Shown here: positions 451 to 60,636 of the stretch, piece by piece | Numbering within the stretch: position 1 is the stretch's first letter | Layout: each line of letters starts with the position of its first letter | DNA from: Eledone cirrhosa | Taxonomy: Eukaryota | Length of the DNA: 64,000 bases | Direction of reading: 5' to 3' | Assembly (NCBI GenBank): GCA_964016885.1 | Contig: OZ024756.1 | Coordinates: 35,092,001 to 35,156,000, forward strand | Notes under the pieces: generated by a model | The model's database searches: none | What the model was told of the DNA's origin: nothing | Seen by the model: only the letters and a program-made list of their open reading frames with translations | Program-made: the position numbers and the translations under genes

Positions 451-3358
451 TTAAGAACATTCTGTGCGGGTTGTCATCATATTTCCAATCCTCTGAGTTA
501 CTGTTCTACATCTTTGGCCACCTGAAACAAATTTAAGGAGAACGTATTGAGTAAAGTGTGGGTGATGTGGAGTGAAGTGTGGGTGGTGTGGAGTGAGTGA
601 AGTGTGATTGTGATACTGTGTGAAGTGAGGTGTGGAGCAAACTATAGGCAGTACTGAGTGAAAATGAGGGTGGGAGTGAGTTAAGTGCACCCAGTACACT
701 CTGTAAAGTAGTTGGTGTGAGGAATGGCAACCATCCAAAGAAACAATGCCAAAAAAGGAACATATTTAAGGGAGATCTATCTAAGAGGACAGTATCTCTG
801 ATAAAATAAATAGTAACCTGGTCTGCAATGACCTGTTCAACCTATGGAAAATTAGATGTAAAATGGTGGTGATAATGATAACTGTGGTAGTGATGTGTCA
901 TTTTCAGGTTTACTAAATTCAAACTTTGTTTTTTTGGGGTTAGTTTATATGTTGAGTCCAATCTTGGTGGTAGTACTGGTGCCACAATGCAAAGCACCCA
1001 GTCTACTCTGCAAGGTGGTAGTGCTGGTACCACAATGAAAAGTACCCTGTCTACTCTGCAAGGTGGTCATGCTGGTACCACAACAAAAAAGCACCCAGTC
1101 CAGCCTATTAGGTGGTAGTGGTGGCTCCATGATAAAAGCTTGCAGTACACCTTTCAATGAGGCTAGCAGTAGGAAGGGCTTCCAGATGTAGAAATTAAGC
1201 CCTAAAACACATCCGTATGAGCAGGATGTGGTCAGTTAACCTGGCTAGTCTCGAAATAACACCCCGTCAAACCCATGCAAGCATGGAAAATAGACACATT
1301 AAATGGTGATGATAATGACGATGAAAATTGTTCCACTCACCTGCTGAATGTGATGAACTAAAAAAGCTGTTCATATTTTCACTGTATTTAGCGTGAGGCT
1401 GTTCAAATATCTCTTCAAACTGATCAAAACTAAAAAAGTCATCGTTGTCTTCACCATCGCCAAACAGGTCATCGAATTTAAAAAAAGAATCATCGTCGTT
1501 GATTTTTATGTACTGCCCCCCGCCCCCCCTGCCCTGGGAGTTCTGATTGCTGCGATGACTCGATGAAAAGAAATTATCAAATGTTGAACCAAATAGATCT
1601 TCAAAATTGAAAGTATGTGCTGAGTTAGAGAAGTCATCCTGACTATCTCCAGTGTCACCAAATCTGTCATAGCGTTCCTTTTTCTCTTTGTTAGACAATA
1701 TCTCATATGCTTTAAAAGGAAAAGAAAACAAAAAATTAGAGATAAATGTAAAAAAAAAAAAAAAACAAGAAAAAATATCAAGTGTGTATATGTGTATGTA
1801 TGTGCTTGTCTCTGTATGACACTTTAAAGTGTCTGCGTGAATATGTGTGAGTGTATGTGTGTGAGTGTATATGTGTGAGTGTATATGTGTTTATCTCTGT
1901 ATGACACAGATTAAAGCCCATATGCATATGTATAAGTATGCATATGTATGAGTGTGTATGTGTTTGTGCTTGTCTCTGTATGACACTATTTAAAGCATGT
2001 GTATGTGTGTACAATATTTAGAAAAAAACTACTTCAAAAAAGTCTCATCCAGCCCATGCCAGAATGGAACCTTACTCATTCACTCACTGTTCCCTCAACA
2101 CCTGATACTGCATAAAAAAAAAGACAGATCCTTCGATTTCCTTATGAATAATATGACCCTGTTAGCAAAATATTCTTGAAAAGTACAAAACAGCTCTATG
2201 ACTGCATCATATTAAAAATTGAAGTTGTTAGTCTAATACTGAAAATTTTCACATTTCATCTACAAATCCATACTATAAACATTTGAATTAACATTAGGAA
2301 TAAGAGGGATCAGATGCTGTTTACTTGAGAGAAGACTACGTTGGTATGGTCACGTGTTGCGCATGAAAGACGACAGTATAAAAAAGTGCAGGGCGATCAA
2401 AATTGATGGTAGTTACGGAGTAGGTAGACCCAGAAAAACCTGGGACGATTTGATAAATTCCGACCTTACACCTCTCTCAGACAATGTCACTGGACAGAGA
2501 TCTTTGGCACCACGCAGTAATACAGAAGACCTGCCTTGCCTATATACAAAGCGAAACCTACAGTCAGTAGGCACCTCTTAACCAAATATACACCCCAACT
2601 CACTACCCCTACTCCACCCTCCCACTTCCACCACCCTTTCTCTGTAAAGTTATGTTGGTACCACAACATCCAGTCCAAACTAATGAGGTCGTGTAGGTGT
2701 CACGATAAAAAACACACAGTGCACGCTGTAATGTGGCCGTGTAGGTAACATGGTAAAAAGCTCCCAGTCCACACTGTAAATGTGGTTGGTGTTAGGAATG
2801 GCATCCAACCGTAGAAAACCTGCCAGACAGCCCTATACGAGCGAGTCACGGTCACCCGACCAATCTTGCCTCTAGTGGGACAATTCCCGTCTAACCCATG
2901 TTAGCGTGGAAGATAGACGTTAAACGATGATGATGATGATGATAAAACTACACTAAAAAAAAATTAAGCCTTTAATTTTCACGATGATCTGTCCACCAAT
3001 AAAGATATTATAAACAGTTATTTACAAATCTATCTTTAGATATTTTTTGCCAAATCGTTGCAGGATCTTAAGAGTTAAGATATAAAACACTCACAAAACA
3101 AAGAAATGTTCAGAAAATAACAATCCTCTTACCTTTGCTAATTTCTACAAATTTTTTTTCAGCTTCAGGATTATCTTTATTTTTATCTGGGTGATATTTC
3201 AGAGCTAATTTTCTAAAGCCACTCCTGATTGTCTTCTGAGAAGCTCCGTGTTTTACGCCCAGGATTTCGTACAGGTCTTTCTGTGGCTCCACTGAGAGTG
3301 CCTCATGAACAAGGACACTCGAGACAGCAGTGAAAAACAACATTTTGTTAAAATACAT
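451..3358 (-). CDS. DNAJB9: DnaJ homolog subfamily B member 9 (ERdj4), 3 coding exons, ~221 aa
   Basis: Exons 3358-3133, 1709-1341, 521-451 (GT-AG, phase 1/1, 666 nt). Signal peptide, J-domain with HPD ([12 protein letters not shown]), G/F-rich region, and C-terminal [19 protein letters not shown] like the ERdj4 CRTVTQRRGNMVTTYTDCS motif. An acceptor at 3374 implies an upstream non-coding exon. Confidence 0.93.
2290..2943 (+). mobile_element. RTE LINE 3' fragment
   Basis: [20 protein letters not shown], then 3'UTR and (GAT)n tail; near-identical to 50385-50915. Confidence 0.85.
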
Positions 3359-13400: not shown

Positions 13401-16400
13401 AGGTCAAATCCTGATGACATATGTCGCCCAGTTTAACACTACCATCAAGCTCTTGCTTGTCTTTAGTGTAGTTCGTTCTGTTGTAAGTGTTTGGTCCAGG
13501 TCTCTGGTTTCAGGACACCTTTCTTCCTCCCTCATACCAGTCACAGAGGCCCTGGAAAGGGATCATAAGCATTGTCCTCCCCTCCTTGTAAAAACGAAAA
13601 GAAAAGTATGTCATTACCTCTGTACAGGCGAGATGATGAATGTTCATGAAGTCAACTTTAGCACGGCAGTAGTCGAAGGCGTGAACAAACTCATGTGCAA
13701 GAACATTGCAACATAACCACCGTTTCTTGGCTGTATTTTGACACACCACCACCTAGGAAGAAATATCATCCTTACTTTAAACATTTCATTACCATATTTT
13801 TAATGAAAACCTTTCTGTTCAAACAAGCCACACATACTGACATTAAGTTATTGTCTTCAAAATAAATAACATCAAAATCTCATAGATAATTATGTAACCT
13901 TTAATGTGAAAATATCATCATCACTCATCACTCGTCGACTACTGTCGAGATGATGGATCTCACTCTCATGCCCCAGAATCCCCTGTCCCCCAGGTCCTGT
14001 CTGCTGATTCCCGTATCCCTAGAGATAACGTCAGGGAATGACAGCTTCCTACTCCTAGTCAGGCTAGAGTCAGGGTTCCAGAGCAAGAGAGCGGATATCA
14101 TTTCATTGCTGGCACGGTGACAGTGGCCAGCAAATTGAGCTCTCCGGGATTTTAGAAGGGCAGAGGCTCGAGGGAGTTTGCCATAGATTTTAGACAACGT
14201 GGGATGTCGTTTCCAGGATAGGTTTTGAAAATATAATAGTATCATCATTTATAGCACAGTAATTAAATGCTAAAAGATTAAGGCATATCAGCTCCCATAA
14301 TGGAAAAAAATGTGTATATAATATATACATATATTTATACACATACATATACATATGTGAAATTACAATGTTATAGGTGTCAATTAGTTATATAAAAACA
14401 TATTGATTGATGTAGTGTCCCTTATGTTAATCATTTTATGACCATATTTCTAACGGACACCACACACACATACTATAGTTTATGGTGACAGGTAAGTTAG
14501 AAACACACATACATACATATATACGTTCACGCACATACAGTAGTTTAAACAGACTCATATATATATATATACACACATCATCATTTTCGGCATCTCATAT
14601 CTGCTAGCAAGGGTTGAACATAGATACACACACACACATACATATTTATGTATATATATATAGGAAAAGAATCAGGACCCCGACGGCTGAGCTCCGGCCG
14701 TTTCGACAGTTAGATCTGAACAGTTCAGATCTAGTTGTCGTAATGGCTGGAGCTCAGCCGTCGGGGTCCTAATTCTTTTCCTATTACCCACTCAACTACC
14801 CTAAGTATCAAGTACTCTGGTGTGTTATGGTCCACCTGGTATCTTACCACACTTTCTTTGTTGAGATGCAATTTGGGTTTGTGCCAGGAAGAGGCACCAC
14901 TGATGCCCTCTTCCTTGTGAGGCAGTTACAGGAAAAGTACCTAGCTAAAAGTAAGCCACTCTACCTGGCATTCGTCGATCTCGAGAAAGCCTTTGACAGA
15001 GTTCCCCGTGCTATAATCTGGTGGGCTCTTAGAAAACTAGGAGTAGATGAATGGCTTGTGAAAGCTGTACAAGCCATGTATAGGGGAGCAGTCAGCAAAG
15101 TTAAGATTAGCAATGAGTATAGCGAGGAATTTAGCGTACAGGTCGGTGTCCACCAGGGCTCTGTTCTTAGCCCTCTCCTGTTCATCATAGTCTTGCAGAC
15201 AATAACGGAAGAGTTTAAGACCGGATGCCCATGGGAACTCCTGTATGCAGATGACCTCGCACTTATAGCCGAATCTATAGTAGAACTAGAGAAGAAATTC
15301 CAAACTTGGAAGCAGGGACTAGAAAGAAAGGGTCTTAAAGTCATCCTGACAAAGACTAAGGTCCTTGTAAGTAGACGAGAAAACAGAACCCAGATCCCCT
15401 CAGGGAAATGGCCTTGCTCAGTATGTAGGAAAGGTGTAGGTAGGAACTCCAATCTCTGCCCCAAATGCAAACAATGGGTAGACAAGAGATGTAGCGGGAT
15501 CTCAGGAAGCTTAACTAAGAATGTAGGCTTCACATGTAGCAGCTGTGCTGGGACAGCTAGCAGCAAACAGCCACAGGAAGCAAGTACCACCAAACTCTGG
15601 GAGGGCTCTGTAGAAACAGTAGACAGCTTCTGCTACCTAGGTGACCGAATTAGCAGCGGAGGTGGGTGTTCGGAAAGTACAATAACTAGGGTAAGAACGG
15701 AATGGAAGAAGTTCAGGGAGCTACTGCCACTGCTAGCTGCAAAAGGCTTTTCCCTCAAAATGAAAGGCAGACTGTATGATGTGTGTATACAAACAGCAAT
15801 GTTACATGGTAGTGAGACCCGGGCGCTGACTGTGGAAGACTTGCGTAGATTAGAAAGAAACGAAGCCTGCATGCTCCGATGGATGTGTAATAGTAATATA
15901 CGCGAACGGCAAAGCATAAATGAATTGAGAGAGAGACTGAGCATAAGAGGAATCAAATGCTGTGTGCAGGAGAGGCGGTTGCGTTGGTATGGACATGTGA
16001 TGCGTATGAAGGATGACAGCTGCATAAAAAGGTGCAGAGCACTAGAAGACGATGGAAACCGCGGAGTGGGGAGACCCAAGAAGACCTGGGATAAGGTGAT
16101 AAAAGCCGACCTTACCCAATTACACCTCTGAAAAGCGATGACACACAACCATGACCTCTGGTGTCACGCAGTACTATAGAAGACCCGACCCCCCCGCGGG
16201 TACAAGCCAAAGCTGAAGTATATAGACAATAAAACCCCACCCTCCCACTGCAAAAAAACACCCAGCCCACACTGTAAAGCGGACATGTAGGCGCCACGGA
16301 AAAAAAGCACCCAGCACTCACTGTAAATGAGGTTGGTGTTAGGAAGGGCATCCAGCTGTAGAAATCAAGCCAGAATCAGTTCCTGTATGAGCAAGACAAG

Positions 16401-25571: not shown

Positions 25572-25761
25572 AACAACACAATCGGTACAGTATATGGAAG
25601 GGATATAATAGGTTAACACTTGAAATAGCAGGAAGAGGTTCTTAATGTTTCGGACGCTAGTCCTTCATCAGAAGAAATAAGATAGATTGAAGGGACGGGT
25701 GGGATGAAATATATATATACGATATATTAACAAATGGAAACTATATTTATAAAACCATATT

Positions 25762-30022: not shown

Positions 30023-33000
30023 CACACATATACACAAACACACAGGTGTGTAAGTCATACCTTTTCTCATGAATGAACCTACATGGAAAACCAGCCTGTA
30101 ACTAACTTATCTACTGGACATACAAAACCCCCAATTCAAAATACATGACACATTGTAAATGTGGCATGTGATATGAGAAGAACCCTTAACGCCTAACACA
30201 CTATTTCAATCTTGGTGGAGCCCATCCCCCTCTCCAGGTCATAACAAAACTGATTTGAGAAAGAGAGTGGGGGCAGGCATCCCCAATACTGGACTGGAAC
30301 TTTATCGACCTCAAAATTATGAAATTTGACCTCAGTGGAATTTGAACTAAGAGCACAGTGAGCTGGAACAAATAGCAAAGCATTCTAAATCTGATGCCTT
30401 AACAACTCTGCCAAACTGCTGCCTATGACGGATGTACACTGACCTTTTATTTTGGAGATGCTGAATCCAAGTCAATGTGGTAATCCTTTATAGTGCTTCT
30501 GATGATATATAGAATTTGATAATGTTTCATTACCTCTATATTTTACATCTTTAAACTAAATTGGGCATAACAAACATTAATTAAGTATAATTTGTTATAT
30601 TGAAACATTTGATCTGGCTGGATCCCCAAGCGTGTCCAGCCAAGCTCATGGACCTTATCCAACCATCTTGCTTGGGGTCTACCCTTAGGTCTACACCAGT
30701 TGGTTTTGCCCATAAAAATCAGTCCAGCGATTCTTTCCTGAGACATTCTAACCACATGTCTATAGTAAAGGAGCTGTGATCTCTCAATTCAGAGAAGTAG
30801 CAGCTCTACGTGGAGTGACTCTCTAATCTCTGAGCTACACACTATCAAGTAATGTTACTCCAAAGACCCTTCGAAGGAATCCCATTTCGGCTGCTTGTAT
30901 TCGTGATCGCATTTTCTTTAGCTTAGCTCAAGAAATATCCGATGAATACAATCAGTGGTAGGGACTGACTGATACATGACCACAACATAGTAATACAGAC
31001 TTTGCTATAAACCTCATCACAAAAACACTGACAAATATAACACTGGTACTTTTACCATTAACCCTTTTAATACCAAACTGCCTGAAACTGCTCCTACTTC
31101 TATGATATAAACTGTTTGTTTTATATTAAGTATTTATCATCATCATCATCATCTTCGTTTAACGTCTATCTTCCATGCTAGCATGGGTTAGACTAAAAAA
31201 ATACCTTCCATCATAATTTTATATAGGAACAGCAACATAATAATGAAAAATTTAATTATATCACTAGACCATTCTAAATTTGCAATTATTTTCAAAATTA
31301 TTCGAAAACGATAGGCAGTACATTTCAATAAATAAATAAAAGGGTTAATACTGAGTACTGTGGCAATAATAGAAACAATTATTAATAATTGTAGGGAGAT
31401 CATGTCTTACCTGTTGTTTGTGTCTTACCTGTTGAACAGTCTGCATTTTGAATTTCTCATCACTAAAGCCAGACTTTTGATTGGCGTGTTCTAACTGTTG
31501 TTGGAGAGGTAGAGCAGAACTGTGTGCTGTGTTCAGGTAACCTGCTAAAAGAAATAAAATTTTCAGTTCACATCTGTGCAGGCTCAGCTGGCCTCCAACG
31601 TGGTTAACATTTCGCACGCTCAAGGCGACATAAGGCACCAATAGAGTGATCTGCCCTTAATACATAATGCAGTGTCAAGGGAAACAATTCATAAAAACTT
31701 CCAGCGTGCTGAAGATTAACATTTTATAAGAGGGTTCTTGGGGTATTTTAAGGATAGTTTTATCACTGTCTAAGTGAGATGCAGGCCCTCGGCTCACCTG
31801 AGAGGTCAGTAATTCTGCTTATGTACTAACCTTGTTTGTTGACGACTCGTCAGAACCCTTGTTAGCAGGGAAAAATGGATATCAAATGATGATGATATAT
31901 AGATACATACACACACACATATACATACATATATACATCATAATCATTGCTTAACATCCACTTTCCTTGCTAGTAAGGGTTGGACAACACACACATATAC
32001 ATACACGTATATGCATACATATAAACATACACACACACACAAATATACATCATCATCATCATCATTTAACGTCTATCTTCCATGCTAGCATGGGTTATAT
32101 ATAAATGTATATATACATACATGCATACACACATTATAGATTTTCTGAAAACAGAGTAATTAATGTTATATAAATGTTAAGTTCCAATATATAGATATTA
32201 GCAAAGAGTACATATGTTTAGAGATACTCAACCACTTTACCAAATGTTACATGATAGACTGGTGATGTTAAGGCTGTATAACTCATATAAATATGTGGCT
32301 GAGTATTCCACAGATACGTCTACCCTAACATAATTTTCAAGGTTATTTAGTTTGACACAGTGCGTGACAAGGCTGTCTCTTTGGTACAATCCCTCTGATG
32401 GCCTTCCAAACAGTTTCCACCTACCCAATTACACTCCCAAAGCTTGCATAGAACTGAGTCTATGATATAAGACATTTATCTATGAAGCTGTACAGTTGGA
32501 TCAAAACTGAAATCTCATGATAGTAAAGTGAACTCCTTAACTATTTGGTTATACTGTGTTCACACATTAAAAGTATTACCTTTAGAATATTAGTTAAATT
32601 TTATTCTAATCTATATATATAAAACTGTGGTTGTCTGTCTGTCTATCGATTTTTGGCACACATCTCCTCTTAGAATCTCTCACGGAATTGCACCCAAATT
32701 GCTATACTTGTACATTGAGCCCTAGCGAAGACATCGGAAAAAAAAAATTTCAAATTGACCCACCCTATGTGACGAAATCGAATATAATGTATCGATTTTT
32801 GAGCGTAAGTGATCAGTTATTTCCCTTTGTTCTGTTTACATTGAGCGTCTGCGTGCAAAAATTAAAAAAATTACGCTGGCTTTCTCAGCGTTTAAAATGA
32901 CATTAACACAATAATTTTTACTTGAAAACAAGTCTATTTAAAGACTACGTAAAACAAGCAAATATTTCGTAAAAAAAAGCAAAAATTATATAAGTTTGAA

Positions 33001-36000
33001 ATTGGAATAAATGCTCTGAAATAGCGATATATATGTGAATATAGACATAGAATATTCGAAAATATTCTGTATGTTTATAATAAACATTTTGAAGACCTAA
33101 TCGCTATAGAATAGAATACGTCACGTATTACAATTAGATTCTCGATAAAAGCAAGGGAAGTAATCTACGCGTTTCATTCTTGTTAGAATTCATCAGGACT
33201 ACATATCCAGTGCTTTTATCGAGAATGACACAGCTAGAGACTTATAGAATACTTAGCTGTGTACAGGAACTGGTTTGAAAGAGCGGTTGCCGGTCCGGCA
33301 GAAATTAGAAATTGGAATAAATGCTCTGAAATAGCGATATATATGTGAATATAGACATAGAATATTCGAAAATATTCTGTATGTTTATAATAAACATTTT
33401 GAAGACCTAATCGCTATAGAATAGAATACGTCACGTATTACAATTAGATTCTCGATAAAAGCAAGGGAAGTAATCTACGCGTTTCATTCTTGTTAGAATT
33501 CATCAGGACTACATATCCAGTGCTTTTATCGAGAATGACACAGCTAGAGACTTATAGAATACTTAGCTGTGTACAGGAACTGGTTTGAAAGAGCGGTTGC
33601 CGGTCCGGCAGAAATTAGAAATTGGAATAAATGCTCTGAAATAGCGATATATATGTGAATATAGACATAGAATATTCGAAAATATTCTGTATGTTTATAA
33701 TAAACATTTTGAAGACCTAATCGCTATAGAATAGAATACGTCACGTATTACAATTAGATTCTCGATAAAAGCAAGGGAAGTAATCTACGCGTTTCATTCT
33801 TGTTAGAATTCATCAGGACTACATATCCAGTGCTTTTATCGAGAATGACACAGCTAGAGACTTATAGAATACTTAGCTGTGTACAGGAACTGGTTTGAAA
33901 GAGCGGTTGCCGGTCCGGCAGAAATTAGAAATTGGAATAAATGCTCTGAAATAGCGATATATATGTGAATATAGACATAGAATATTCGAAAATATTCTGT
34001 ATGTTTATAATAAACATTTTGAAGACCTAATCGCTATAGAATAGAATACGTCACGTATTACAATTAGATTCTCGATAAAAGCAAGGGAAGTAATCTACGC
34101 GTTTCATTCTTGTTAGAATTCATCAGGACTACATATCCAGTGCTTTTATCGAGAATGACACAGCTTTCAAACCAGTTCCTGTACACAGCTAAGTATTCTA
34201 TAAGTCTCTAGCTGTGTCATTCTCGATAAAAGCACTGGATATGTAGTCCTGATGAATTCTAACAAGAATGAAACGCGTAGATTACTTCCCTTGCTTTTAT
34301 CGAGAATCTAATTGTAATACGTGACGTATTCTATTCTATAGCGATTAGGTCTTCAAAATGTTTATTATAAACATACAGAATATTTTCGAATATTCTATGT
34401 CTATATTCACATATATATCGCTATTTCAGAGCATTTATTCCAATTTCTAATTTCTGCCGGACCGGCAACCGCTCTTTCAAACCAGTTCCTGTACACAGCT
34501 AAGTATTCTATAAGTCTCTAGCTGTGTCATTCTCGATAAAAGCACTGGATATGTAGTCCTGATGAATTCTAACAAGAATGAAACGCGTAGATTACTTCCC
34601 TTGCTTTTATCGAGAATCTAATTGTAATACGTGACGTATTCTATTCTATAGCGATTAGGTCTTCAAAATGTTTATTATAAACATACAGAATATTTTCGAA
34701 TATTCTATGTCTATATTCACATATATATCGCTATTTCAGAGCATTTATTCCAATTTCTAATTTCTGCCGGACCGGCAACCGCTCTTTCAAACCAGTTCCT
34801 GTACACAGCTAAGTATTCTATAAGTCTCTAGCTGTGTCATTCTCGATAAAAGCACTGGATATGTAGTCCTGATGAATTCTAACAAGAATGAAACGCGTAG
34901 ATTACTTCCCTTGCTTTTATCGAGAATCTAATTGTAATACGTGACGTATTCTATTCTATAGCGATTAGGTCTTCAAAATGTTTATTATAAACATACAGAA
35001 TATTTTCGAATATTCTATGTCTATATTCACATATATATCGCTATTTCAGAGCATTTATTCCAATTTCTAATTTCTGCCGGACCGGCAACCGCTCTTTCAA
35101 ACCAGTTCCTGTACACAGCTAAGTATTCTATAAGTCTCTAGCTGTGTCATTCTCGATAAAAGCACTGGATATGTAGTCCTGATGAATTCTAACAAGAATG
35201 AAACGCGTAGATTACTTCCCTTGCTTTTATCGAGAATCTAATTGTAATACGTGACGTATTCTATTCTATAGCGATTAGGTCTTCAAAATGTTTATTATAA
35301 ACATACAGAATATTTTCGAATATTCTATGTCTATATATAAGTTTATTTAAAATATATGTATCTGTAAATTTCGTTACGCGTGCAGTCAGTTTTATATATA
35401 TAGATGATAAACAATAATAACCTCTATGAGGTCACTAAACCTGCTAGAAACAGCAGCTAACTCTCCCTCATATCACACCACTCCTTACTGTCTTAAATTT
35501 AGAAAACACATATCCTCTATGAGGTTACTAAACCTGCTAGAAACAGCAGCTAACTCTCCCTCATATCACACCACTCCCTACTGTCTTAAATTTAGAAAAC
35601 ACATATCCTCTATGAGGTTACTAAACCTGCTAGAAACAGCAGCTAACTCTCCCTCATATCACACCCTTCCCTACTGTCTTAAATTTAGAAAACATATCTT
35701 CTATGAGGTCACTAAACCTGCTAGAAACAGCAGCTAACTCTCCCTCATATCACACCCCTCCCTACTGTCTTAAATTTAGAAAACATATCCTCTATGAGGT
35801 CACTAAACCTGCTAGAAACAGCAGCTAACTCTCCCCCATATCACACCCCTCTCTACTGTCTTAAATTTAGAAAACATATCTTCTATGAGGTCACTAAACC
35901 TGCTAGAAACAGCAGCTAACTCTCCCTCATATCACACCACTCCCTACTGTCTTAAATTTAGAAAACACATATCCTCTATGAGGTCACTAAACCTGCTAGA

Positions 36001-39000
36001 AACAACAGCTAACTCTCCCTCATATCACAACCCTCCCTACTGTCTTAAATTTAGAAAACACACAGACAACCATGCAGAACAACTCCATCGCAGCTCTGTG
36101 GTTCGGCTGGCATCGTCTACTCGCGTGTTGCGCAAGTACTGTGAAACAATAAATTTCAACACTTTTTTGCACAGAGATAATATCCATAGGCGAAACTACA
36201 ATTGTCACTGCTGGCGCAGCTCATGCTTCCAGGTCTGCAATTCATTCACTCAGTGCCTGGTAGACAAAAAAGTGCTGCAACCTAACTTTGGTAACTTAAT
36301 GACCCCGAGCAACGCCGGGCTTTAATGCTAGTTTCAGATAAAATAAAGAACAAGACTAAATTTGTCATGAAGGTTAACCTTTTTTGTATCAAACTGCTTG
36401 AAACTGTTCCTGCTTCTCTGATAAAAAAAACAACTTTATCTTTAAGTGTTTACATTTATCTAAAAACCTCCCAGCATAATTTTATACAAGAACCTTTATT
36501 AAGTTATGCTCGAAACATCAGTTTAATAATGAAAAAATTATGTTATTAACCCTTTAGCATTTACATTACTCTATATTTACTATTATATTTTCATGGTAAA
36601 GGCTTTACCTCACATAGTTATCTCACCTAATATTGGATCTATGAGATTTTTATATTATTTATTTTGAGAACAATACCTTAACGTTGGTATGAGTGGCCGG
36701 TTATGACCAGTTTGAACAGAAAGTGAGAGCATTCTGGCCCGGTATCGCCAGTTTAAATGCTAAAGGTTAAATCTCTCCAAATTCTTGATTATTTTCAAAA
36801 TTATTTGAAAATCATACACAGTGTCTTTCAGTAGAAATATGGTGATGTGATGAACAGGTTGATAATATCATTAAACAGAATATATCATTGAATAGAATAA
36901 ATTGTCATGCTCAAGAACACAACACGTGTCTTCACAATAAATATATTACGAGAGAATTTCCAGAGTGGATGTTGGTGATTCTAATTACAAGGGAAGTGCA
37001 AAGGGAAAGCTTAATAAGATAAATACATATCGAGAGAGATGTCTTGAGGAGGTAGAAGAGGCTAGAAGGAGGGTCGGCATCTCACCTTTGTATTCCCGTT
37101 CTCTTCCTTGGCGAGACGCTAATTCACAGGGAGGAGAAAAAGGGAGATAAACGGAAGAGTTTTAATTTCAACATTACATCACCACCAGCAACAACATAAG
37201 AAAATCAGCACCAAAAACAACAACAAAAACCCCAACATCACAGATAAAACAGCAACAACATTACAGATATGACAACAATATTATAACATCAGCCTGGACT
37301 ACCAGATGAAATCAGATTCTTTAGGCAGCTGAATGCTCATTTCAGGAAACTTTGAGATCTACCAATTGGAGAGTTGGATGCAATGCCCTAACTGGTTGTT
37401 TACCTGCATATTACACACACACACGTTGTTGTTATAGCTCGCACATGTAGGTTTAGCAGGCCTCCTATAAGGTTGCATCTCATAGCTTTCTTGGGTGCAG
37501 CCAGTCCTATCATGGAAAGACTTCCCCTTAAAACCAGACACCAGTCTGTTGCAGTGATTAACACCCAGCTTGTGTTCCTAGTACAGATTTCTTTTTTTCT
37601 CAGCAGAGTGAACTAGAGGTTTGTGAAATGAAGAGTCTTGCACAAGGATACAATGTGCCTCCCGGTCAGGGAATTGAACCTATGGTTATGATTGTGATTC
37701 CAACTCCCTAACCGACCAATGGAGATGGAAAGAAAAGGAAAAAAAAATGTAGTTTATCTTACTTGCTTGTGGCATCCGCTGTAGTTGGTAGTTATGTGGA
37801 TAAGATTCAGCTAATGGCTTCTGTTGTTGAGGATAATGACCAGGATACGATGTAAAAGCTGACTGTGAAGCCACTGTTGGGGTGGTGGTGTATTTAGTGG
37901 TGGGTGGACCAGCAGTGAATGGCACAGCTTGCTGCTGGTAAGCATGGCTACCTTGACTGGCGTATGCTACTTGAGGAGGTTGGTTCTGGCCATATGTTGT
38001 AGCTTCTGAATAAAATAAGGACAAAAAAAAGTAATAGACTGATAAATTAGTAATAGCACTAACACAGTGGGGTTCACAATAAAGACATAAGTATGCAGGT
38101 GGAGGTCTATGAGTGCTCTGTCCTCAGCCCATAACAGAAGAGTTTAAAACAGGTGGTCCATGGGAACTCCTATATGCTGATGACCTAGTCCTCTTATTGA
38201 ATCTGCAGTAGAATTAGAGAAGAAATTCCAGACAGAAGCAAAATTTGGAATCGAAAGGCTAAAGTCCTAGAAAGTAGAAAGGAAATCTGATTCCATCAGA
38301 GAAATGGCCTTGCTCAGTATGCAGAGAAGTAGTAGATAAAAATCCCATACTATGTCCTAAATGTAAACTAGGGGTACACAAAAGCTGTAACAGTATCTTA
38401 GCCAGGCTAGCAAAGAATGTAGGCTATGTATGTGGTTGATACTCAGGAGCAATAAGCAGCAAAACCTTACTATCAATTGCTTAGCGGACTCCTTAGAACT
38501 AGTTGACAGCTTCTGCTACTTGGATGACCATGCTTGTTTCATCTTGTAAGTGTCGAAAATAGATGTTAAAAGGTAATGATGATGGTGATACTTTCAGTAC
38601 TCCTAGTCAGATACTGCCTGAGACTAGTGACAGAGAGGGTGTTAGTGTCTATGGCACATTTTACAGAGTGGACTTTGCTAAAGTCACCTAAGTAAATAGT
38701 TCCTTCTACTTTAACCCTATCATGACCATATTTCTAATGAAATACATTCTATTTCAGTTTTAAGGGATTTACTAAAATTATTCATTATTACATTACTAAG
38801 ATAGTAACTTAACACATGGTTCTTATATAAAATTATTTTGGAAGATTTTTATTTAAAACGGGTTCGTTTTGGTTTATAGGACCAGAGGCAGTTTTGGCCA
38901 GGGTTGGTATAAAAACAACCATTACAACATGGAGTGTTGATGTAATATACTTACTGTACTCAGCTTGAGAAGGTGTATATACGACAGCTGGTTGTTTATT

Positions 39001-39596
39001 GGTGATAGCATAAGATGTCTGTGGATATTTATGTTCATTAGGGTATGGTTGATAGACTGTGACAGGTGGAGATGGCGACCGAGGTCTTTTCATTCCTTGA
39101 AGACGCTGCTGAATCTGAAAAATAAAACACAGAAGGTTTTGTGTATATAAAAGAGAGAGAAAGTGTGAGTGTTGAATGTCTGTCGGTTTCTAGAACAAGT
39201 ATTCCAGTTGTTTCAACAATGGAACAGCGTACTCGTGAAGTTAACATGCAATGGTGTTAATGTTTCAGATGCTAGTCCTTCATCAGAAACAGACACAGAG
39301 AGATGAAAAACAAGAGGAAAAAAAAAATTGTCAGACATCTTACACACGCATACGTATGTATGCATACTTACTGGAATGAGGGGCTGATGAGGTTTGTACA
39401 AAGTGGGTCTTCCAGTGACCCCAGGGTGAAGTAACATTGGGTGGCCTGTCACAGTATATGAGTGTTGGAAATTTAAAAGTTCACTGAAAACAAAATACAG
39501 AAATTAGTTGGTGCTCCAACAGAGTTTTAAGACTGAAAAACCAGTAAAATAGTAACAGTTTCTGACATAGTCACACACCCTGGCAATATATATAGA

Positions 39597-53317: not shown

Positions 53318-60636
<7,319 letters not shown>

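Follow-up and report, generated by a model that had tools for sequence, protein, structure and literature searches.

Head-to-head multimeric insertions of a non-coding retrozyme-like family in Eledone cirrhosa, with a footprint that points to a Penelope-like element enzyme

How does a 310-bp unit that encodes no protein, and that carries a hammerhead ribozyme in every copy, come to lie as a multimer inside another repeat? The question is raised by positions 33001-35336 of a 64,000-nucleotide stretch of Eledone cirrhosa DNA (hereafter the window), in which a sequence-only reading had recognized a retrozyme-like satellite of eight copies, belonging to a young family of apparently identical units. 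Both the entry of retrozymes into the genome and the one-tailed, inverted insertion of Penelope-like elements (PLEs) are stated to be open matters in the literature, and the present family records the reaction cleanly, in that an insertion uses both fixed starts, each a single time, carries one haplotype and has inner joins at unrelated positions. Our reading, which we hold to be probable, is that of a protein-less non-LTR retrozyme inserted as head-to-head multimeric arms, likely through a trans-acting PLE enzyme that copied an RNA, itself likely circular. The window insertion is a young copy of an abundant, non-coding, 310-base retrozyme-like family of a known class. Neither the class of element nor the PLE footprint is new, so that the gain lies in evidence on mechanism rather than in a novel type of system.

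In the portions of the literature available to us, animal non-LTR retrozymes are described, like the present element, as tandem 150-450-bp units with a type I hammerhead in each, a GC content of <50% and no protein. They are without LTR, PBS or PPT, and the present element is likewise without LTR structure, its ends falling inside the 310-bp unit; a target site duplication of >4 bp, thousands of copies and coexisting PLEs are further properties held in common. Cervera & de la Pena 2020 (PMC7229834) reported RNA circles in coral, mussel and axolotl and named PLEs as strong candidates, a 2020 review (PMC7761336) held, in the part available, that no motif reveals the retrozyme's partner, and Li, Clavereau & Pollet 2026 (bioRxiv 10.64898/2026.07.22.740005) presented PLE co-occurrence together with a pLTR phylogeny, and discussed local amplification. 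The link between retrozymes and PLEs is as such already in print. There it rests on co-occurrence and pLTR phylogeny, whereas here it rests on the structure of insertions, evidence of a kind that we did not find in the literature searched (the papers' supplements may differ). Among the main texts searched, no paper dealt with the present family or with the insertion ends of animal retrozymes; the words 'tail', 'target site' and 'head-to-head' are absent from the main text of Li et al. 2026, and the available portions of PMC7229834, PMC7761336 and Li 2026 describe no head-to-head arms, paired fixed ends or tail. RNA circles, on the other hand, have been shown for published retrozymes (PMC7229834), whereas they are predicted for the present family.

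A single two-armed insertion in the window

The block at 33001-35336 is a single insertion, composed of two opposed arms of ~3.8 identical units each (Table 1). The eight copies counted previously hold good for the ribozymes, but the block contains only 7.55 units of 310 bp, and these are divided between two opposed arms rather than laid out as one array; identity within the locus is 100%. The RNA 5' ends face the centre of the locus, with the 3' ends on the outside at phases 168 (left) and 127 (right), where unit phase 1 is the first base 3' of the predicted cut. Neither the inversion nor the 11-bp target duplication formed part of the earlier description. The longest stop-free frame of the 310-nt monomer is 59 codons, such that it has no protein-coding capacity, and the GC content is ~0.34. 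No match to a PLE protein (RT + GIY-YIG frame) was obtained within the 64-kb window. The structured module listed in Table 1 may serve as a recognition and start region for reverse transcriptase.

Table 1. Coordinates of the insertion and its surroundings (positions within the window)
Feature	Position	Strand	Remarks
Host repeat, left part	32609-32997	+	Presumed Helitron-like ends
Target site duplication, left copy	32987-32997	+	11 bp, TATATAAGTTT
Left arm	32998-34165	-	1168 bp, 3.77 units, RNA sense on minus strand; outer phase 168 (long end, with tail), inner phase 241
One-sided 'tail'	32998-33035	-	Unit phases ~131-168, at left outer end only
Hammerhead copy	33138-33226	-	Predicted cut between 33166 and 33165
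Hammerhead copy	33448-33536	-	
Hammerhead copy	33758-33846	-	
Hammerhead copy	34068-34156	-	
Head-to-head arm join	34164-34165		2-base overlap (CT)
Right arm	34164-35336	+	1173 bp, 3.78 units, RNA sense on plus strand; inner phase 195, outer phase 127 (short end)
Hammerhead, extended stem I	34219-34307	+	Predicted cut after 34279; repeats at +310, +620, +930
310-nt monomer	34280-34589	+	Spans one predicted cut to the next; would be released as a linear or circular RNA
Structured module	34338-34447	+	Phases 59-168; common to older subfamilies with different hammerheads; holds both fixed end sites
Hammerhead copy	34529-34617	+	
Hammerhead copy	34839-34927	+	
Hammerhead copy	35149-35237	+	
Target site duplication, right copy	35334-35344	+	First 3 bases also match element end
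Host repeat, right continuation	35334-35389	+	

The insertion lies in a host repeat of ~1,000 copies (32609-32997, 35334-35404 and 36301-36332), which we take to be Helitron-like and non-autonomous, judging from its ends. The empty site, in which the 11-bp sequence occurs once with both flanks adjoining, was found by genome pattern search in ~1,000 host-repeat paralogues (≤2 mismatches were allowed, and there were 0 mismatches among the 100 matches listed), and a paralogue aligns to both flanks of the insertion at 91-98%. Since the paralogues carry a single copy with the flanks adjacent, the 11-bp duplication at the insertion is real. A MITE had been considered as the host on account of a TIR-like match (32611/35387), and was rejected because the paralogues show Helitron-like 5' ends; the right match at 35387 is probably a second, inverted 5' end of the host repeat. 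Within the 3' part of the host repeat lie two interruptions, an inverted 5' end and, at 35417-36062, a 93-bp tandem array. Elsewhere in the window, small hammerhead-like motifs of another type lie at 25640-25680 and 39255-39295 (-) and are probably remnants of PLE ends. The frame at 14773-16131 (+) is presumably an RTE-like reverse transcriptase, and the exon-like frames at 1267-1890 (-), at 37686-38123 (-) and 38833-39189 (-), and at 60037-60636 (+) we take to be DnaJ-like, glutamine/proline-rich and TRAF/MATH-like, respectively.

Perfect inverted repeats are a known type of assembly artefact, and a palindrome formed from fold-back reads must be weighed. Among the public-run contigs listed (there are 261 further pieces), none bridges the central join of this locus, a result which would suit an artefact yet is no evidence either way, and one contig of public run X2 joins 32997 to 35347 across the insertion, but may derive from a paralogue. 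Against an artefact stand the asymmetric structure, the target duplication checked against empty paralogues, the rule for outer ends described below (59/59), and contigs of run X2 in which minus-arm sequence is joined to plus-arm sequence at >10 other phases. We regard the chance of such an artefact as vanishingly small.

The hammerhead and its family

Eight type I hammerhead cores, four per strand, lie within 33001-35336, and the core is intact in 8/8. The motif has a CUGAUGA + GAAA core, a 5-bp stem II, ACGCGU and GUA, with a stem I of 6 bp (one G-U pair) that is followed beyond an internal loop by a 16-bp distal helix, and there are more hairpins in the unit. When the eight cores were checked against the sequence, every stem, core segment, helix and hairpin that had been claimed was present, and both cleavage positions had been placed correctly. 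The monomer folds better than 100/100 shuffles (z -4.43). The covariance search that had been suggested as a check gave a divided outcome. There were 0 hits in the window at the Rfam gathering score, and an E-value-mode search of 361 bases returned a full-length but weak match to Hammerhead_HH9 (RF02275), at 23 bits and E=0.0018 versus a gathering score of 52. The present motif and HH9 have in common the type I topology and the extended stem I with internal loop, and the core is matched, but stem III is much shorter here. The minimal PLE hammerhead type differs from the present motif, in which stem I is extended with an internal loop.

Within a single molecule, ACGCGU can form one pair only, around a CGCG loop, whereas two copies pair mutually at -7.5 kcal/mol; the palindromic stem III appears suited to dimer cleavage. 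In its weak stem III and palindromic loop the motif resembles the axolotl HHR_Amex1, a dimer-cleaving type that cleaves well only as a dimer (PMC7229834, in the text available). Of nine retrozyme dimers predicted by Li et al. 2026, one was cleaved in vitro.

Whether the hammerhead is maintained was approached through 23 aligned sequences (6 young, 17 older), hand-picked to avoid junction chimeras. In the hand-drawn structure 94.1% of cells were paired, against 36-46% in slid controls, and two-sided changes were seen at 19/27 pairs, the sequences being related so that these counts are not independent events. The 3-8 pair was C-G in 13 of these related hammerheads, U-A in 9 and U-G in 1, and in the available text of PMC11167929 a 3-8 double swap in a hammerhead partly restored cleavage. 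Stem III is still self-complementary in most older copies. Changes fixed array-wide in the young family fall, within the core, only on the free position 7, and otherwise on stem and loop positions, though core sparing among these changes alone is not significant (too few sites). The evidence supports a hammerhead under structural constraint, with stems that covary across relatives. As the stems and the C3-G8/U3-A8 pair covary, the retrozyme reading gains from this, and the earlier view of a family that is young, resembles retrozymes and has a type I hammerhead is upheld.

In terms of abundance, pattern searches of the 3.0-Gb assembly returned 3,954 matches to an exact 30-base core and 17,898 to a degenerate core, 1,015 to the long end followed by TA, and 1,197 to a short-end pattern that also matched an internal variant. 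From these counts and the lengths of sampled arrays, we estimate insertions to number on the order of 2,000. The copies are identical within the window locus, but the notion of one identical-copy family does not extend beyond it, given 23 haplotypes in 41 insertions and the existence of older subfamilies. The latter have units of ~320 nt, share phases 59-215 with the young family, have diverged hammerheads, and are ~75-78% identical to the young family over the common module. Examples at L084:2449-2864, L071:8018-8501, L132 and L137-L156 show the same end module and short/long layout with different hammerheads, some with a U3-A8 core, and the long end of these subfamilies has 1,223 genome matches. 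Three hammerhead-like motifs ~500 bp apart (L113:7567, 8078 and 8561) possibly represent another retrozyme family.

Outer ends and joins across sampled insertions

We compared 73 insertions, namely that of the window, the first 12 exact-core clusters (unselected), 40 chosen by the long end and 20 chosen by the short-end pattern, the last being absent from the exact long-end list. The 72 besides the window's all lie on one contig (C1). Fifty-nine are two-armed in view, 8 are one-armed and 6 extend beyond the stretch examined, with the short-end loci L174, L182 and L186 counted as uninformative. As such, 59/67 fully visible insertions are two-armed (11 from the unselected set, 34 chosen solely by their long end and 14 through the short-end pattern), and the arms are head-to-head in 59/59. 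In all 59, one outer end lies at phase 127-139 and its partner at phase 154-174, where phases 131-139 are UA-rich and indistinguishable from a (TA)n flank; two ends of a kind were seen in 0/59. Flanks are mostly (TA)n (in the unselected set 11/13 are of (TA)n type and the remaining 2 AT-rich). A 12-bp target duplication was found at L037; most other targets are (TA)n, in which a duplication is unreadable. In view of this, the term satellite had to be given up, as these are dispersed single-event insertions with a target site duplication, an inversion, fixed ends and a PLE footprint.

That footprint has been described by Arkhipova et al. 2013 (PMC3846280), who proposed fold-back self-priming, and by Craig et al. 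2021 (PMC8557442). According to the portions of these papers available, endonuclease-bearing PLEs have, as here, a head-to-head inverted, 5'-truncated copy, a 30-40-bp tail at one end and a bias towards microsatellites. Their target site duplication is 8-10 bp, compared with 11 bp for the window insertion, and one possible duplication is given in the available text of PMC8490949. The present insertions depart from PLEs in having no coding sequence, in that long multimers of one unit make up both arms, and in joins that are palindromic at no more than the chance rate. Furthermore, Frangieh et al. 2024 (PMC11167929, in the text available) found that both strands are nicked and extended by a purified PLE, whose two internal starts define the tail. 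That enzyme, PAc (a Poseidon PLE of Anolis), resembles the present case in its AT-rich targets and in two internal starts downstream of the hammerhead; there the two strands were not seen to differ in start site and the template was linear, whereas here each insertion uses each site once. The short site here includes a stretch rich in UA, to which a (TA)n target could pair. The interpretation of PLE priming from both target ends is argued for by the target duplication with empty paralogues together with the 59/59 short/long head-to-head layout, and its attribution to a PLE by the match to published hallmarks and the extension of both nicked strands by purified PLE. For priming driven by a PLE at both ends of the target, the insertions are evidence of unusual clarity; the footprint is observed, and cleavage, circularity, an enzyme dimer and the driver are presumed.

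The inner ends behave quite differently from the outer ones. Arm lengths range from 0.1 to 23 units, 102/120 segments exceed one unit and reach up to 7.1 kb (L031 counted twice), and the phases of inner ends are spread almost evenly along the unit (KS p=0.09), the cut site being neither avoided nor favoured (2/120 segments). Because 102/120 segments exceed one unit and only 2/120 inner ends lie near the cut, the inserted template was not a cut linear monomer. The inversion might alternatively have arisen if priming occurred once and the product then primed itself by folding back, or if a single linear RNA underwent twin priming of the L1 type. The right arm of the window insertion does begin 26 nt after the outer phase of the left arm, which had suggested twin priming at this locus, and palindromic joins are known in rotifer PLEs (PMC3846280, in part). 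Near-equal inner phases (≤10 nt apart) also occur in 6/59 joins, but this is little above the 4.0 that chance would give; inner starts that adjoin the partner's outer end amount to 22/118, below the 28.5 expected, and neither route predicts two fixed outer ends. The near-uniform phases of the inner joins and their microhomology also speak against both routes. On the 59 insertions we reject L1-type twin priming, as well as fold-back self-priming as the main route, and consider this family of explanations highly improbable.

At clean joins, without inserted bases, the overlap is ≥2 bases in 33/47, against ~18% in simulation; these overlaps were taken from BLAST ends, and 7 of >10 bases are probably inflated by hairpins. 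Inserted bases occur at 12 joins. At L031:3043-3220 the central join is duplicated, with one inversion junction present twice, 170 bp apart. The footprint separates the published models of rolling circle, local amplification and fold-back self-priming.

Template and enzyme of the proposed route

The arms of an insertion carry the same majority haplotype in 30/32 insertions in which each arm contains whole units (20,000 permutations gave a mean of 2.5 and a maximum of 9). Across 41 insertions with ≥2 units there are 23 array-wide haplotypes, of which 16 were found in a single insertion each (L068, with its two insertions, was excluded). A haplotype fixed through a whole insertion needs a bottleneck of one unit, which a monomer circle gives, and it is for this reason, together with the haplotypes shared between arms, that a circular template is favoured. 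Exceptions are present: the arms of L060 are of two haplotypes, single units at L079 differ by one base, and the long arrays L052 and L069 contain recurrent variant units. The mixture at L060 and the variant units of L052 and L069 imply that mixed templates or later exchange do occur. The arms would likewise match if two RNA molecules had been supplied by a single active source, or if one arm had converted the other.

These exceptions bear on two alternatives. In the first, PLE priming takes place from both ends, but on an uncut linear multimer transcribed from an existing array, with circles as a by-product. Heterogeneous templates of this sort fit L052, L069 and L060, and with the purified PLE hammerhead mutants had no effect on insertion and unprocessed RNA was the dominant substrate (PMC11167929, in the text available). 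We nevertheless judge it unlikely, as the majority of the 23 haplotypes were each seen in a single sampled insertion, throughout whose units they are fixed (a pattern that requires a bottleneck of one unit), arms of 7.1 kb and longer have intact ribozymes in nearly every unit, and the ribozyme is maintained under covariation. In the second, a monomer or short stump inserts and the array then grows in place by unequal exchange, as a satellite would; this is in keeping with the variant units of very long arrays and with the local amplification proposed by Li et al. 2026. It is very unlikely in our estimation, given that both inverted arms are multimeric, with fixed ends, inside one target duplication, and that very young insertions without any sequence difference are already 7-25 units long with matching arms.

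For the favoured reading, a PLE enzyme working on a circular RNA, it is reasonable to postulate the following route. Transcripts of an older array would be multimers, cut by their hammerheads, probably as dimers via the palindromic stem III, and the monomer would be ligated into a circle. A PLE ribonucleoprotein, probably a dimer, would then bind the module at phases 59-168 and nick both strands of an AT-rich target ~11 bases apart. The 3' ends of the target would prime reverse transcription at two fixed sites ~35 nt apart, one per nick, and leave one short and one long (tailed) outer end; it is this outcome that the footprint displays, with the chemistry behind it presumed. Both enzymes would circle one template, passing the ribozyme site, for 0.1 to 23 units. 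Finally, the two cDNA 3' ends would be joined at unrelated positions with 1-7 bases of microhomology, as the footprint displays, and each cDNA would template the other's second strand. Several observations weaken this explanation: the Rfam score is below the cut-off, one in nine of the dimers of Li et al. was cleaved, the hammerhead is dispensable for the purified PLE, the driver search described below was negative, units are mixed at L060, L052 and L069, 8/73 insertions are one-armed, and the other samples all come from C1. The analysis does, however, name a 310-nt substrate and two start positions, which makes the mechanism open to in vitro test.

A more specific form of this route, which we advance tentatively and which may well prove wrong, is that a PLE dimer works on one ribozyme-made circle, each subunit taking one start site and one nick, and that both subunits roll round it. 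If this were true, it would explain why every endonuclease-bearing PLE is laid out head-to-head with a tail on one side only, retrozyme 'satellites' would be born multimeric in one event, the two first-strand cDNAs would prime each other's second strand, and the 110-nt module would constitute a portable handle for the insertion of concatemers from circular RNA.

As to the source of the enzyme, RT + GIY-YIG elements are numerous in the genome (150 matches were scored), and one has a stop-free frame of 938 residues. The autonomous PLEs L108, L118, L138 and L157 and the fragments L112 and L119 have the inverted short/long layout of the retrozyme, and their short/long inverted pairs sit in (TA)n; that autonomous PLEs of the same genome have this layout argues for the PLE-driven reading. 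The search for a particular driver was negative. The end module of the retrozyme was not present in PLEs at 40 GIY-YIG loci and 9 further PLE-linked regions, no PLE frame adjoins the module in 21 loci of older subfamilies, and 14 comparisons of tails between the retrozyme and PLE families gave p ≥ 0.096. The tail of one PLE family looks similar, without a significant match; the 150 copies scored for this family, the query itself excluded, have 80-95% identity to that query and are mostly broken.

The unit might also be the truncated 3' end (pLTR) of an autonomous PLE, with the ribozymes as passengers. An autonomous Penelope-type family of this genome does have a hammerhead with a near-identical stem II, and kinship between retrozymes and pLTRs was reported by Li et al. 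2026. However, none of the two-armed insertions has coding sequence next to the unit, head-to-tail runs comprise up to 25 units, and no PLE end in the sample matched the end module of the unit, such that we give this explanation very little credence.

The Penelope-type family in question (L129, L130, L112:7591-7700, L119) carries its hammerhead at the 3' end, and the retrozyme may have borrowed its ribozyme from there (L129/L130). That family has 8,924 matches, many of them tiny head-to-head stumps, and a different end region. The tails of the four autonomous PLE families (L108, L118, L138, L157) are ~45-60 nt, and these families are often inserted into each other's TA flanks.
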